A DNA stretch of 64,000 nt from an uncultured Campylobacter sp. (lineage in GTDB: Bacteria > Campylobacterota > Campylobacteria > Campylobacterales > Campylobacteraceae): the NCBI GenBank assembly GCA_947090385.1, contig CAMUNZ010000001.1, positions 4,333 through 68,332 on the forward strand, given 5' to 3'. Positions 26,901 through 32,900 of this stretch are shown piece by piece. The stretch's first letter is position 1. The number at the start of each line of letters is the position of its first letter. Made by a program: the position numbers.

Positions 26901-29900
26901 AGTTTTAATCTTTGTCTTGAAAGTCCAAAATATTTACAATATTCTCTAACGCTTGGAAAAGCAACCTCGCCGTTTTGTCTTTCAAGCTGAATTCTAAGCA
27001 TTATTAACACATCGCTATCGCTTACTGCCTCTTCCATACTTTTGCAAATTTCACATCCAAAAACTTCCATTCCTCTCATCATCATAGGAGGACCAAAAAG
27101 CCTAACTTTAATCCCCATTTTTTTCATCACATAGATATCAGATCTTGCGACTCTACTATGCAAAATATCGCCGATAATAGTAACCACAAGCCCATCAAAG
27201 CTTTTTTTGTTTTCATAAATTGTAAAAAGATCAAGAAGCGCTTGAGTTGGATGCTCGTTTTGTCCGTCCCCAGCATTTACCACACAAACATCGGTATTTT
27301 CTGCGACAAATTTCGCAGCACCAGAGCAATAATGACGAAGCACAAAAATATCAGTTTGCATCGCTCTTATATTTGCTATCGTGTCAGTTAAAGTTTCGCC
27401 CTTTTTTGTGCTTGAATTTGCCGCTATGAAATTTATAGCATCAGTGCCCAATCTTTTTGCTGCGATTTCAAAAGAAGTCCTCGTTCTAGTTGAGTTTTCA
27501 AAAAACGTATTTACTATCGTGCGACCTGATAAAATGGGCTCTTTTTTATCGGCTTGTTTGTTTAAGTTTTTAAAAAACTCGGCCTCTGTGAGAAATTCGA
27601 AAATTTCATCTTTACTTAAATTTTCCGTGCTGATTAAATCTTTGCAAGAATAAGACATTTGACCGCCTTTTTTAAAGAAATTTTGTAATTCTATAAAAAA
27701 AATGCTTTTTAGAAATTAAAATTGAACTATTTATGAAACTCAAACATATTTAAAAATTTCTTAGCTCGGTCGGTTTTTGGATTTGTAAAAAACTCTTCTG
27801 GTGTTGAAATTTCTATGATTTCTCCAGCGTCCATAAAGATGATTTTATCCGCTACAGCCCTTGCAAAAGCCATTTCGTGCGTTACAATTAGCATAGTTCT
27901 TCCCTCTTTTGCCAAATTTAGCATAACATCTAAAACTTCACGCACGATTTCAGGATCAAGTGCGGCTGTAACTTCATCAAAAAGCATAATTTCAGGGTTC
28001 ATACAAAGACTTCTAACGATTGCAATTCGTTGTTTTTGTCCGCCGCTTAGTTCTTTTGGAAAAGCGTTTATTTTATGTAAAAGTCCAACTTTTTCAAGCC
28101 AAAATTTAGCTTCATCTGTAGCGTCTTGTTTTGTGCGTTTTTGCACTTTTGTAGGTCCTAAAATAACATTTTGCAAAACATTTAAATGATCAAAAAGTTC
28201 ATAGCTTTGAAAAACCATACCGACTTTTTGACGAATTTCTCGCCATGATTTAAAGTTTTTATCTATTTTGGTGCCTAGAATTTCCATCGTGCCGTTTTGT
28301 ATCTCTTCAAGTCCATTAATACATCTTAAAGTTGTGCTTTTGCCACATCCAGAAGGTCCTAAGATAACAACAACTTCGCCTTTATTTACGCCAAAACTAA
28401 TGCCTTTTAATGCGTGGTTATCGCCGTAGTATTTATCTATATTATCAAGTTTTAAAATTTCCATTTTTATCTCATTTCATTTTCTATAAATTTAATCTCA
28501 TCATCACTTAAATCAAAAAGTTTATAAACTAAATCATCAGCATTTTTATCAAGTTTTGAAATTTCGCTTTGTAAATTTAAAACTTCATTTTTATCATGCA
28601 TAAAAATTCTCTCCCATTGATTTTTGAAATTTCGCTCATCAAGTTTATCTTTAAATTTAAGTTTTAAGGCTTTTGTAAATTCATCTATAAACTCATCAAA
28701 TTCTAAAAGTTCAAAATTTTCAAGAGTTTTTGATAATTTGTCTAGTTTTAACTCAGTTAAAAAAGCATTTTTTGTAGTTTTTAAATTTTCATTTAAATTT
28801 AAAAGTTCATTTGCCAAATTTTCAAATTCACTCATTTTATCAGCTGGAATTTGTGGAATAGGGAGTCTTTCTAAATTATTAGTTTTTAGTTCGCCATTAA
28901 TTCCACCACCCATATAAAAACTTTTCAAAGAAAAATATATGAGTTTTGAATTTAAAAGTAAATTTACATATTTTAAAATTTGAGTTTTTGCTGTTATTAT
29001 ATTTCCAGGTGCTACAACATAAAAATTATCATTTGTATATGTAAATCTTGGCTCTGTTGCCATAATGCACGGATAAACTATTTTATCTTTTTCAAATTCT
29101 TTATAATATGCAATACTATCTTGTGTTTCAAACCATTTATTAGATGTTTTTTTTCTACAACCTTTTTCACCACTTTGTTTAAGTCTTGGCATAAAGTTCA
29201 TTAAAAATTTTTTTAATGAAGGATAGTTTTCTATATCCAAATTTAAGGCTGGAAATGTGCAAATCAGCCACAAATTCGCCCATTCATAACTATATCTTTT
29301 TATATCTCGTCCTCTTAAAATCGGCTTTATTAAATTTGATGTTTTTTCTTTTTCATCTAAATTTTGGCAGCTGTTTAGTAGTTCATCGCGGGTTTTTGTA
29401 TCGATTATAAAAGCTTCATTTAATCCAGTTAAAACTCCTCTATAAATTTGTATATCCCAACTTTTAAGAGGAGTTCCTTTTTTTTCAAGTTTTGATTTTA
29501 TGGAAATTTCAGTATTGTTTAAAAAAGAAAAAGTTGTTTTATCAAGTGAGCTTTGTAAGATAGAGTTTGGCTTTTCATCTAAATTTGTGCTAAATTTAAA
29601 TTCATTATTTTGATTAATTTCTTTTTTAAAAACAGTTATAGCGCTATCAACAGTGGCATCTTCAAAAATTTTAATTTCGTTAAAATCAACTATGTTTTTA
29701 AAGCTTGTATTTTTTAGTAAAAACTCACGCAAATTTTCACCATATTTTGCACGAAAGAATTTATTAGAACAGATAAATCCTAAATATCCACTTTCTCTTA
29801 AATTTTTTATACCAAGTTCATAAAAATAAGCATATAAATCAGCAGTGCCATTATAAATTTCATAAATTTTTTCTAAAAAAGGTTTTTGCTCTTTTATGCG

Positions 29901-32900
29901 TTCTTGCCTAACATAAGGTGGATTTCCAATAACTGCGTCGAATTTAATATCTTTAAATGGAAAATCTAAAAGCGAGTTTGCGGTTTTTATGTTGTTACTT
30001 AAATTTGTAAGTTTTCTACCTTTTTTGGCTGTTTTTAACCATAAAGAAAGTTTTGCGATTTCGGTTGCGTTTTCGTTTATATCAACGCCATAAAGGTTGT
30101 TTTCTAAGATAGAAATTTCAACATCAAAAAGCCCAAGCGCATCGCCGTCAAACTCACGCCTTAAATCATCGCAAAATTTATGCTCATTTATTAAAAAATT
30201 CATCGCTTCGTTTAAAAATGCTCCACTTCCACAAGCTGGATCTAAAATCTTTAAACTTAGCAAAAAGTCTTTATAAGCGTAAATTTTATCTAAATTTTCC
30301 TTGTCTTTTTTGGTAAGTCTGTTTTGATTTTTAGGTGGCGTGATATCACGCAAAATTTCTTTTTTGTCTTTGCAAATCTCACCTAATGTTTTAGAAACGA
30401 TAAATTTAGTAATAAACTCAGGAGTGTAAAAAATGCCATCTTTTTTTCTTTGGGATTTGGTTTTATCAAAACTATCACCGCCAATGTTTGCGGTGATCTC
30501 TTCTAAGTCATTTAAGCTTTGCTCGAAAATATGACCTAAAATATTTACGCTAACTTCGCTTGCAAAATCATACTCGCTTAATTTACTCGCATTTAGGGCG
30601 AAATCATCTATTTTTAAATTATCAAGTTTTTCATCAGTAGCAAAAAGTCCGCCGTTATAGCCTTCAATGCTTAGTTTTTCATCGCCTTGATTTATGGCGT
30701 TAAAGTAGATTTTATACATTTCATAAAGGCTGAAATTTGTATATTTTTGGTTTTTAAAGTCTTCTTCGATGGTTTTTATCGTGTTTGGTTTCAAAAGTGT
30801 TTTATCTTCTGCAAATAAAATAAAAATAATCCTATCGCAAAGTTTTGCAGTGTAAGATAAAAGCTCATTTTTACTGATGTTTGGGTTGTTTTTTATTAAA
30901 TTTTCAAATAAATTTGATCTAAAATCTGAGTAATCGTTATAAAATTTCTTAGAAATTTCGGTTTGGAAATTCAGGGATTGCTCTTTTAAAAGTAAGGGAG
31001 TATTATTTTTAATGCTGTTAAAATTTAATAATAAATAAAACTTTTTAAATTCCGTAAAATTTAAATCAAAAAGATTAAACTCTACAAATTCTATCTTTTT
31101 ATCTATGTAAAATCTTAATTTTTCAAAATTTGAAATGATGATATAGCGAGAATTTGCGTGAGAGTTGTGATAATTAAAAGCTTGATTTTCAACTTTACTT
31201 AAATCTTTTGTCGTTGTATCTTTTAACTCTATAATGCCCACAACTTCGCCATTTACGATGATGACACCGTCTGCTTTTTTAGCGTCAGTTTCGTTTTTCA
31301 TCTCTCTTTTTAGGTTGAAATTTTCAGGATTTGTCGTATCAAGCGTGTAACCTAAGCAGTTTTCAAAAACATCTTTTAAAAATCCATCTTGATAAACTTC
31401 TTCTTTGAAAGTTTTGATAGCGTCTTTTTTTGCGGTGTATTTTTGAAACTCGTTATAAGCTTTTAAAAGTGCGTTTTCGTCTAAGTTTTGGCTAAATTCT
31501 TTGATGATTTTTGGTAAAAACATTAACTCCACCTGTTTTCTAAAATTTTTGATAGTTTTGATACTGGATAGCAAATCGCAAAATACAAGAAAAATATAAA
31601 GGAATAAATTATAAAAGGCGCCATATTATTTGAAAATAATGAATTTTCTATGATTTGTTGGCCGACTTTTACGATTTCTACAACGCCGATTAAAACGACG
31701 ATTGATGTAGTTTTTATCATCCTGCTTAATAAATTTATCACGGAAGGCACAAGTCTTCTTGTAGCAAGTGGAATAATGATATAAAAATAAATTTGCGTTT
31801 TTTTAAGTCCTAGCGATAAACTTGCTTCAAATTGATATTTTGGTATGCTTAAAATCGCGCTTCGCACTAAATCCATCATCTCAAAAACTCCCCAAATGCT
31901 AAAAACTATAATCGAAGCAGAAATTGCGTTTAAATGAATATCTAAAATTTTACTAAGTCCAAAATAAACTAAAAAAAGCCAAACAAGTTGTGGCATAACT
32001 CGCACGATTTCAAGACAAATTTTTAAAATAAAATAGATAAATTTATTTTTTAAACTCATTAAAACGCCAAGAAATAAGCCACCGATTAAAGATATCGCAA
32101 TCGCTATAAAAGAAATTTCTAAACTTACAAAAAGCCCATTCATCAAACGAGCGAAATTTTCACCTTCAAAAATCAAATTAAGCATTTGCATAATTTAACC
32201 TTTTTTCTAAAAAAGTTAAAAACAAAGATATCGGTAAAATTATAATCAAATACGAAACGACAAGCATAAACAAAGCCTCGTTTGTCATATAATAAAGCCC
32301 CATAATATCTTTTGTAACATAAACTAAATCAGCTAAAGCAACTATGCTTACAATCGAAGTTTCTTTCAATAAAAAAATTATATTTGCAGATATTGAAGCA
32401 AGCGAAATTCTTAAAATTTGCGGAAGCAAAATATAAAAAATCAGTTGATTTTGACTAAATCCAAGCGAAAGAGCGGATTGGATTTGTGCTTTTTTGATCG
32501 CTTCAAATCCGCTTCTAAAACTTTCACTCATATAACTTCCACCTAAAAATGCAAGACCGATTACGGCACATTCAAAACTTTCAAGCGAAATTCCGATTTT
32601 TGGCAAACCAAAATATAAAAAAAATAGTTGTATTAAAAGCGGAGTATTTCTCGAAATTTCAACATAAATATCACAAATTTTTGCTAAAAATTTGATTTTA
32701 AAAATTTTCACCCAAAGTATAAAAAATCCAATTATCAAGCTAAATAAAATTCCTAAAAACGCAAGTTTTAATGTCAAAATTCCAGCTTTTATATACAAAG
32801 GATAAAATTCGTTTATAAACTCAAAATCCATAACCTTCCTCGAAAAAATTGACTATTTTAACTTTTAATTCTTAAAAAATTCAAAATGGATTATATTTTT

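Follow-up and report, generated by a model that had tools for sequence, protein, structure and literature searches.

In the DNA of an uncultured Campylobacter sp. analysed here, a stretch of 64,000 nt on contig CAMUNZ010000001.1 (hereafter the window, to which all coordinates refer), an intact gene for a Type IIG restriction-modification (R-M) enzyme lies as the third cistron of an amino-acid ATP-binding cassette (ABC) transporter operon. We hold with good confidence that this operon is of the PaqPQ type, that the R-M gene replaced nothing when it entered, and that it occupies a recurrent R-M slot whose contents are exchanged by recombination. A first-pass annotation of the same DNA had instead described a PEB1-type operon in which a mobile defence gene took the place of the binding-protein gene.

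An open reading frame (ORF) map of 24-36 kb and the junction sequences give the minus-strand order permease 1, permease 2, R-M gene and ABC ATPase, with a 107-nt gap separating permease 1 from a divergent cytochrome c gene upstream and pyrB lying downstream of the ATPase past a 68-nt gap. The R-M ATG (31523-31521) overlaps the permease-2 TAA by 1 base (TAATG, 31525..31521), and the R-M stop TAA (28469-28467) is followed by the ATPase ATG at 28464, 2 nt beyond, in a junction (TAAAAATG) that is identical in C. ureolyticus alleles. These two junctions confirm the first-pass description: the R-M gene lies within an amino-acid ABC transporter operon and leaves no intergenic space. Its product length of 1,035 aa agrees with a mechanical ORF list that counts from an upstream TTG; although the ORF and its junctions are real, the true product has 1,018 aa, since all homologues begin MF... 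and the identical database protein (P0001) is of that length. Because isolate genomes, among them the complete chromosome of C. corcagiensis (CP053842.1), show the same arrangement with the same junctions, the nested gene is no assembly quirk. A Shine-Dalgarno-like AGGTGGAG in the last permease-2 codons, directly before the R-M ATG, appears now to serve the R-M gene. The GC content of the gene (27.4% versus 29.4% for the window) is not informative on its origin.

To place the operon among its relatives, we use a permease-2 scan with one genome per species, which yielded at least 80 loci from C. concisus, many other Campylobacter, C. gracilis, C. volucris and C. coli, and also from Firmicutes; C. 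ureolyticus and C. corcagiensis were recovered separately by protein look-ups. Among the matches listed, permease 2 and the ATPase are adjacent in all 76 R-M-less loci with both genes on the contig, at a gap of 2-354 nt (median about 16 nt), and these 76 loci hold no gene between the two, none for a binding protein either. The proposed comparison with related Campylobacter thus recovers no peb1A-like gene at the slot. Since the related loci have nothing between permease 2 and the ATPase, the R-M gene is an insertion and not a replacement. In 62 of the 71 assessable loci among the matches listed, the next gene after the ATPase, in the same orientation, codes for a family-3 binding protein, and the product of the window's gene at 13996-14787, which is the sole family-3 binding-protein homologue in the window, as previously noted, is 61-65% identical to the binding protein encoded there. 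From these counts and identities, we take the ancestral order to be permease-permease-ATPase-binding protein, and the gene at 13996-14787 is probably that of the cognate binding protein, separated from its ancestral place downstream of the ATPase. The displaced gene has a xanthine/uracil permease gene (12694-13953) on one side and a phosphoribosyltransferase-like gene (14800-15390) on the other, in the region 11941-15390 of the plus strand, with no ABC transporter genes beside it.

The identity of the transporter follows a similar comparison. The C. coli counterpart (55/60/75% identity for permease 1/permease 2/ATPase) has the order ctb-nssR-perm-perm-ATPase-tuf, with truncated-haemoglobin and nssR-like genes on one side and tuf on the other, a position that we take to be the cj0465c-cj0470 region of the C. 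jejuni map. In C. lari, the homologues of the window ATPase (76% identity) carry the NCBI name 'pathogenesis-associated glutamine ABC transporter'. PaqP and PaqQ correspond to Cj0467 and Cj0469 (PMC4178425), and a 2026 study describes paqPQ as not colocalised with a binding-protein gene, with its substrate unresolved in C. jejuni (PMC12795558). Having two family-3-type permease genes and a gene for a GlnQ-like ATPase, syntenic with cj0467-cj0469 in C. coli, the operon appears to be of the PaqPQ type (Cj0467-Cj0469), its permease-ATPase adjacency broken in the window by the R-M gene. The assignment to PEB1 does not hold: the C. coli locus recovered with permease 2 is the one at ctb-nssR...tuf, the ATPase homologues are named Paq, and no inner binding-protein gene occurs among the related loci listed. 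Like PaqPQ of C. jejuni, the window has two permease genes and then an ATPase gene, but a 3-kb R-M gene parts permease 2 from the ATPase. The binding-protein gene is unlinked in C. jejuni and C. coli (PMC12795558), but it follows the ATPase in C. concisus and many others.

At the nucleotide level, the insertion is resolved by two R-M-less junctions. In L003, the overlap leads straight into the ATPase start, GGTGGAACTAATGGAAATT (longer context ...AATAGGTGGAACTAATGGAAATTTTAAAG), and in L109 there is a direct TAG/GTG overlap, GGTGGAGTTAGTGGAAATT (longer context ...AATAGGTGGAGTTAGTGGAAATTTTAAAA). The window reads ...CAGGTGGAGTTAATG, then the insert TTTTTACC ... GAGATAAAA, then ATGGAAATTTTAAAA. Compared with L003 and L109, the window has gained precisely the ORF and 2 nt and has lost nothing, and the insertion thus appears to be ORF-precise, at the overlapping stop and start of permease 2 and the ATPase. 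At the junctions inspected, there are no repeats beyond the shared ATG, although no dedicated repeat search was run, and neither the operon nor its vicinity holds a mobility gene. An insert consisting of an ORF and 2 nt, in an operon free of mobility genes, is not a mobile unit with its own machinery. By entering at this point, the R-M gene would have taken over the original ribosome-binding site and start-codon position of the ATPase, while its own end would supply the ATPase with a new short leader and ATG context.

The R-M protein matches the PADLOC profile REase_MTase_IIG (PDLC03609) with an E value of 1.3e-190, residues 5-1015 aligning to profile positions 7-1063 of 1066, a full-length match that puts nuclease and methyltransferase in one polypeptide as expected of Type IIG. 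Pfam matches are to Eco57I (1e-41, 143 bits), MmeI_Mtase (6e-13, 49 bits) and TaqI_C (8e-12). Methylase motifs I and IV (DPACGSGAF at 428-436 and NPPY at 534-537) are invariant in an alignment of 32 homologues with pairwise identities down to about 53%, as are D85, E99 and K101 of an N-terminal PD-(D/E)xK-type motif (D85-x13-E99-L-K101), though the hidden Markov models for the domain, HSDR_N_2 and MmeI_N, stay below threshold. The sub-threshold matches in the N-terminal 400 aa are MmeI_hel (8e-5, 23.7 bits), HSDR_N_2 (4e-4) and MmeI_N (1.4e-3, 19.4 bits), the cut-off for the MmeI models being 27 bits. Taken together, we read the protein as an intact Type IIG enzyme in a single chain, belonging to the Eco57I methylase family. 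Its predicted architecture runs from a D...ExK nuclease at the N-terminus through a helical spacer and a gamma-class N6-adenine methylase to a C-terminal target-recognition domain (TRD) of TaqI_C/CamA-like type. The gene contains no homopolymeric G/C tracts, and the usual Campylobacter mechanism of phase variation is therefore absent.

Among solved structures, the closest by sequence is CamA (E 9e-23, residues 425-928), followed by M.BseCI, the BREX proteins PglX/BrxX and then MmeI, whose phmmer match (5hr4, E 1.3e-7) covers the methylase core alone (residues 405-554). When the AlphaFold2 model is searched with Foldseek, the order is CamA, BrxX, BpuSI (4e-16), PglX, MmeI (1e-13) and DrdV. The model has a mean predicted local distance difference test (pLDDT) score of 76 and shows a beta-sheet core in the N-terminal nuclease-like domain; as a guide to specificity we dropped it, because it is too poor in the TRD. 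The earlier assignment to the MmeI family therefore survives for the methylase core; the N-terminal and helical MmeI models give sub-threshold scores, and the Pfam search reports no MmeI TRD or C-terminal model, the TRD matching TaqI_C instead. The label seems valid at the superfamily level only.

When the slot is followed through related genomes, the same position is found with different contents (Table 1). The IIG-carrying relatives share the junctions, while the genes around the four-gene unit differ from those of the window. A metagenome pattern scan with the permease-2 3' end returned 10 loci, 6 of them relevant. In the empty-slot loci L109-L112, the synteny is the window's own, with TatD-recN-NAD kinase-cytochrome c, the operon and then pyrB-pyrC, and the operon proteins are 84-90% identical to those of the window. 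The refuting case named in the first-pass annotation, relatives with the R-M gene at a different locus and an intact binding-protein gene in the slot, is not what the close relatives show: where they have the R-M gene, it occupies this slot.

In C. ureolyticus, the most frequent content of the slot is a remnant in which the first 26 or so R-M codons are fused to the last 73 or so, with 97-99% DNA identity to a full-length allele (for example L094:4699-4998, with 18 other C. ureolyticus loci within L089-L108, plus L118 and L122). An 11-nt direct repeat, TGATGAGTTTA, marks the junction, with about 2.75 kb lost between its two copies, and because this single deletion junction is common to all remnants, they probably go back to one event. 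In the window allele, the upstream copy of the repeat is degraded to GAGTTT, which makes a remnant-type deletion less likely there. The idea that the in-frame 99-aa remnant is a sign of selection for coupling to the ATPase was considered and dropped, as the shared junction points to one deletion event and two remnants are frameshifted to 62 aa.

A second, unrelated system uses the same position. The AlwI-like system scores 3e-198 (REase_II) and 1.7e-145 (MTase_II) in PADLOC, its junctions are again tight, and its copies in L084 and L113 are 67-80% identical. Every cassette in the slot, the AlwI-like system included, has overlapping or 2-5 nt junctions. For R-M genes of the C. ureolyticus group, the permease 2/ATPase junction appears to serve as a recurrent docking site. 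In L084:5001-11633, a metagenome contig from Logan (SRR8173832), four R-M genes stand in a row with overlapping starts and stops, and the ATPase ATG comes next. Its AlwI-family endonuclease gene ends in codons (...AATTTAGGATAA) similar to those that close the IIG gene of C. corcagiensis, which suggests that the second system entered the IIG gene a few codons short of the stop. In L113:1478-4996 (VWSJ01000003.1), the slot holds the AlwI-like system alone, and a family-3 binding-protein gene still follows the ATPase (5924-6736); the start of the first methylase, ATGGAAAAT, is close to that of the ATPase, ATGGAAATT, a likeness that hints at recombination at microhomology.

The genes of the operon do not share one history. 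Permease 1 is 87% identical in protein sequence to that of L109 and 74% to that of C. ureolyticus L098 (74-76% across C. ureolyticus), and permease 2 is likewise closer to L109 (90%) than to L098 (73%), whereas the ATPase is 84% identical to L109 and 91% to L098. A tract of about 1.7 kb, which runs from the 3' portion of the methylase domain through the entire TRD, the C-terminal helices and the R-M/ATPase junction into roughly the first 140 nt of the ATPase gene, is nearly identical to the C. ureolyticus contig L114; outside it, sliding nucleotide identity to L114 falls to 72-98%, in patches, in the 5' half of the R-M gene and to 63-86% in the permeases. Over roughly its first 230 nt, the ATPase gene shows 90-97% identity to C. 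ureolyticus and 72-83% identity to L109, and in the next 180 nt or so the relation is reversed. The gene is thus a three-part mosaic (C. ureolyticus-like, L109-like, C. ureolyticus-like), and more than one recombination event must therefore have crossed it.

Within the R-M protein, the domains also differ in their nearest relatives. P0002 is 100% identical to the window protein in the N-terminus, 99% in the methylase, 73% in the TRD and 99% in the C-terminus, while the corresponding values for P0003, the L114 allele, are 83%, 94%, 97% and 98%; the other members of the 90% cluster of P0003 are named C. ureolyticus. As P0002, P0003 and the 1.7-kb tract point to different relatives for different parts of the gene, the window allele combines a 5' half of its own lineage with a C. 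ureolyticus-type TRD, and it is a recombinant. When compared to the C. ureolyticus alleles L098 and L082, the TRD is 49-70% identical in nucleotides where neighbouring segments are 97-99% identical. The alleles in the slot fall into at least 6 TRD classes, including 955-aa alleles without detectable TRD similarity; given these classes and the near-identical TRD of L114, the TRD is hypervariable yet not unique to this genome. The view that the R-M gene arrived as foreign DNA, part of the first-pass annotation, is in our judgement supported.

We propose that cassettes, parts of cassettes and TRDs move between strains and species by homologous recombination, with the conserved permease and ATPase genes acting as homology arms, and that exchange probably follows natural transformation. 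Campylobacter is a naturally competent genus. Transcription would start between permease 1 and the cytochrome c gene, in the 107-nt gap that holds a candidate promoter, and run through all four cistrons, with translation of the R-M gene coupled to that of permease 2. Co-transcription of the R-M gene with the transporter is plausible and is the simplest reading of the layout. A consensus scan of this 29% GC DNA finds 37 promoter-like sites versus 26.8 +/- 4.4 expected, which is uninformative, and the 4 matches to terminator-like structures equal the chance expectation, with none at either R-M junction. Like other Type IIG enzymes, the product would methylate a single adenine within an asymmetric site that the TRD specifies, and would cut at a fixed distance. 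It is possible, though we put it forward only tentatively, that in the C. ureolyticus group the permease 2/ATPase overlap is dedicated to the exchange of R-M cassettes that lack promoters. Unrelated R-M systems would then be expressed solely through operon read-through and translational coupling, and the transporter genes would be the arms that allow cassettes and TRDs to pass between species by transformation.

The explanation offered by the first-pass annotation, in which a mobile defence gene replaced a peb1A-like gene of a PEB1-type operon, is barely credible in light of these comparisons. The window's sole family-3 binding-protein gene does lie 13 kb off, and none adjoins the operon; however, a gene between permease 2 and the ATPase is found in 0/76 listed loci, with the binding-protein gene after the ATPase in 62/71, the syntenic and R-M-less L109 passes directly from permease 2 to the ATPase, the junction comparison shows a gain of the ORF and 2 nt without any loss, and the C. 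coli counterpart is the cj0467-0469 locus. We also find it very unlikely that the R-M gene is ancestral to the clade, was inherited vertically only and was lost precisely in the empty-slot lineages, with no horizontal exchange. Such a history would suit the slot and junctions being conserved despite rearranged outer flanks, and the identity of the R-M protein to C. ureolyticus and C. corcagiensis (80% and 75%) being near that of the flanking genes (73-93%), but it conflicts with the tract that is 96-100% identical to C. ureolyticus versus 63-86% in the permeases, with the mosaic ATPase, with the different nearest relatives of the N-terminal half and the TRD, and with the unrelated R-M system in the same slot of another species.

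Two further alternatives concern function and expression. The protein might now be mainly a DNA methyltransferase, either an epigenetic regulator or a decaying R-M gene, and not a restriction enzyme; its closest solved relatives, CamA, M.BseCI and PglX/BrxX, are methylases without nuclease activity, its nuclease domain is below the Pfam threshold, and the gene is dispensable, as in most C. ureolyticus genomes it is reduced to the 99-aa remnant. We nevertheless regard this as improbable, because the three nuclease-motif residues are invariant in all 32 full-length homologues, the N-terminal 420 aa are as conserved as the methylase domain, the protein matches a Type IIG REase-MTase profile over its full length, and TRD swapping among several specificity classes is the pattern expected of a defence function. 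The tight packing might also be incidental, with the R-M gene, the ATPase or both using promoters inside upstream coding sequences and restriction untied from transporter expression. We do not favour this alternative, but it deserves serious consideration: minus-strand promoter-like sites occur in permease 2 (31636-31608) and in the R-M gene (e.g., 29877-29850, 29432-29404, 29131-29103 and 28825-28796), all remnants retain about 222 nt from the 3' end of the R-M gene ahead of the ATPase, and an intact ATPase gene still follows the two frameshifted ones. Weighing on the other side are the small excess of such sites for AT-rich DNA, the junctions of all slot cassettes, which are typical of co-translated cistrons, and the lack of a terminator-like structure at either junction.

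The insertion of an intact Type IIG gene into a PaqPQ-type operon, at a slot open to recombination, is thus the reading that we prefer, and several points weigh against parts of it. The transfer between C. ureolyticus and the window lineage may have run in either direction, and the suggested role of natural transformation draws on knowledge of the genus. The empty slot of L109 may be primary, or it may be a secondary precise loss. With two remnants frameshifted, read-through to the ATPase start is not strictly conserved, and promoter-like hexamers are many in the AT-rich coding DNA, some of them inside the R-M gene, so that independent promoters for the R-M gene or the ATPase are conceivable. 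As for the enzyme, the N-terminal domain reaches no Pfam threshold, and the AlphaFold2 model is poor across the TRD, with pLDDT <50 for much of residues 690-880.

When compared to characterized systems, the window enzyme has the same domain order as the Type IIG enzymes BpuSI (3S1S), MmeI (5HR4) and DrdV (7LO5), with fold matches over 900-1,080 alignment columns but 13-15% identity, and no close characterized relative was found. The overall domain order is also similar to that of MmeI as a Type IIL enzyme, but the Eco57I model scores three times higher on the window protein, MmeI ranks by fold behind CamA, BrxX and BpuSI, and the TaqI_C/CamA-like TRD is unlike that of MmeI. The mobility of R-M genes and the exchange of TRDs, or 'domain movement', in Helicobacter pylori are reportedly well documented by Kobayashi and colleagues. 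The window resembles those cases in having an intra-operon R-M gene without a mobility gene, alleles that differ mainly in the TRD and exchange by recombination, but differs in that insertion is ORF-precise at a stop/start overlap and that two unrelated R-M systems, alone or in tandem, use the slot in several species. Defence hotspots between conserved core genes are a familiar phenomenon, and the slot shares with them a fixed position, conserved flanks, variable cargo and an empty state in relatives; unlike the usual hotspots, it lies between two cistrons of one transporter, with no intergenic DNA and with R-M genes only so far. That R-M systems can insert into operon-like gene clusters has been reviewed (PMC2993543). 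A comparative study of the C. ureolyticus complex reports strain-specific R-M genes, and a search of its text for the term 'ABC transporter' gave no match (PMC10204631). Our limited literature search found no earlier description of this slot.

The enzyme is thus an ordinary Type IIG R-M protein, and R-M insertion into operons is already known, the context here being an unusually tidy case. What the locus adds is a single intra-operon junction with five observed states across related species and at least 6 TRD classes, and a 1.7-kb tract of near-identity shared by genomes that diverge by about 25% in the flanking genes. It offers a compact natural system for the spread of R-M genes without mobility functions, for the swapping of specificity and for a link between defence and transporter expression, and it corrects a plausible but wrong annotation inference, namely a PEB1 operon with a lost binding-protein gene. 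If the exchange-site reading is true, the level of restriction would follow the regulation of the transporter, and a housekeeping operon would be a vehicle for the spread of defence genes.

Table 1. Features of the window and contents of the permease 2/ATPase slot in related genomes.
Feature	Position or locus	Strand	Details
Promoter-like site TTGAAT-18-TAAAAT, candidate operon promoter	32855..32884	-	Consensus match only, in AT-rich DNA
Permease 1, PaqP-type polar amino-acid permease	32178..32831	-	217 aa; Pfam BPD_transp_1, NCBIfam HEQRo_perm_3TM
Permease 2	31523..32191	-	222 aa; Pfam BPD_transp_1, HEQRo-type in NCBIfam
TAATG junction, permease-2 stop/R-M start	31521..31525	-	One shared base
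Type IIG R-M gene, intact	28467..31523	-	1,018 aa plus stop
N-terminal nuclease-like domain	31014..31346	-	About aa 60-170; D85-x13-E99-L-K101
Predicted gamma-class N6-adenine methyltransferase domain	29454..30263	-	About aa 421-690; Pfam Eco57I
Predicted TRD, TaqI_C-type	28854..29426	-	About aa 700-890; Pfam TaqI_C
Recombination tract, about 1.7 kb	28320..30010	-	96-100% nucleotide identity to C. ureolyticus contig L114
R-M/ATPase junction TAAAAATG	28462..28469	-	R-M stop, 2 nt, ATPase start
ABC ATPase, PaqQ/GlnQ-like	27727..28464	-	245 aa; Pfam ABC_tran, NCBIfam GlnQ-like
Family-3 solute-binding protein	13996..14787	+	263 aa; Pfam SBP_bac_3, 1e-28
Slot: IIG gene, same junctions	C. corcagiensis CP053842.1 (L081)		75% protein identity
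Slot: IIG gene, same junctions	C. ureolyticus isolates and metagenome contigs L082, L083, L098, L114, L116, L117		
Slot: remnant ORF, 99 aa	19/20 listed places of two common C. ureolyticus ATPase sequences		Includes complete genome CP050963.1
Slot: remnant frameshifted to 62 aa	Metagenome loci L118, L122		
Slot: empty	L109-L112		TAG/GTG overlap
Slot: two Dam-like methylases and AlwI-family endonuclease	Campylobacter sp. FMV-PI01 (L113)		
Slot: IIG gene, then the same three-gene system, then ATPase start	L084		

Outside the clade, the nearest IIG homologues (52-61% identity) stand at other loci. In Campylobacter sp. JMF_04 NA10 (L085:1750-8078), a homologue with 61% identity over 62% of the query directly follows ZorA-like and ZorB-like genes and a gene for a 329-aa protein without a family match, and this may be a Zorya-like defence neighbourhood. 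In the C. concisus-type loci (L086-L088:5001-9093), the homologue (52%) is divergent from the S10 ribosomal-protein operon and overlaps a downstream AAA_14 ATPase gene that matches the PADLOC candidate system PDC-S01 (4e-15). A second variable spot lies beside the operon itself: in some C. ureolyticus (L099:6267-10376, L100, L103, L082 and L114), a block of four genes encoded on the other strand comes immediately after the ATPase gene, and other strains are without it. The block comprises a TelA-like gene and genes for proteins of 410, 362 and 217 aa, which have no PADLOC match and nothing above the Pfam threshold. Elsewhere in the window, an Asn/Lys-rich ORF of 788 aa (23033-25399, plus strand), in a region of 24-29% GC, has nothing above the Pfam threshold; with its signal-peptide-like N-terminus, it may encode a surface or autotransporter-like protein.

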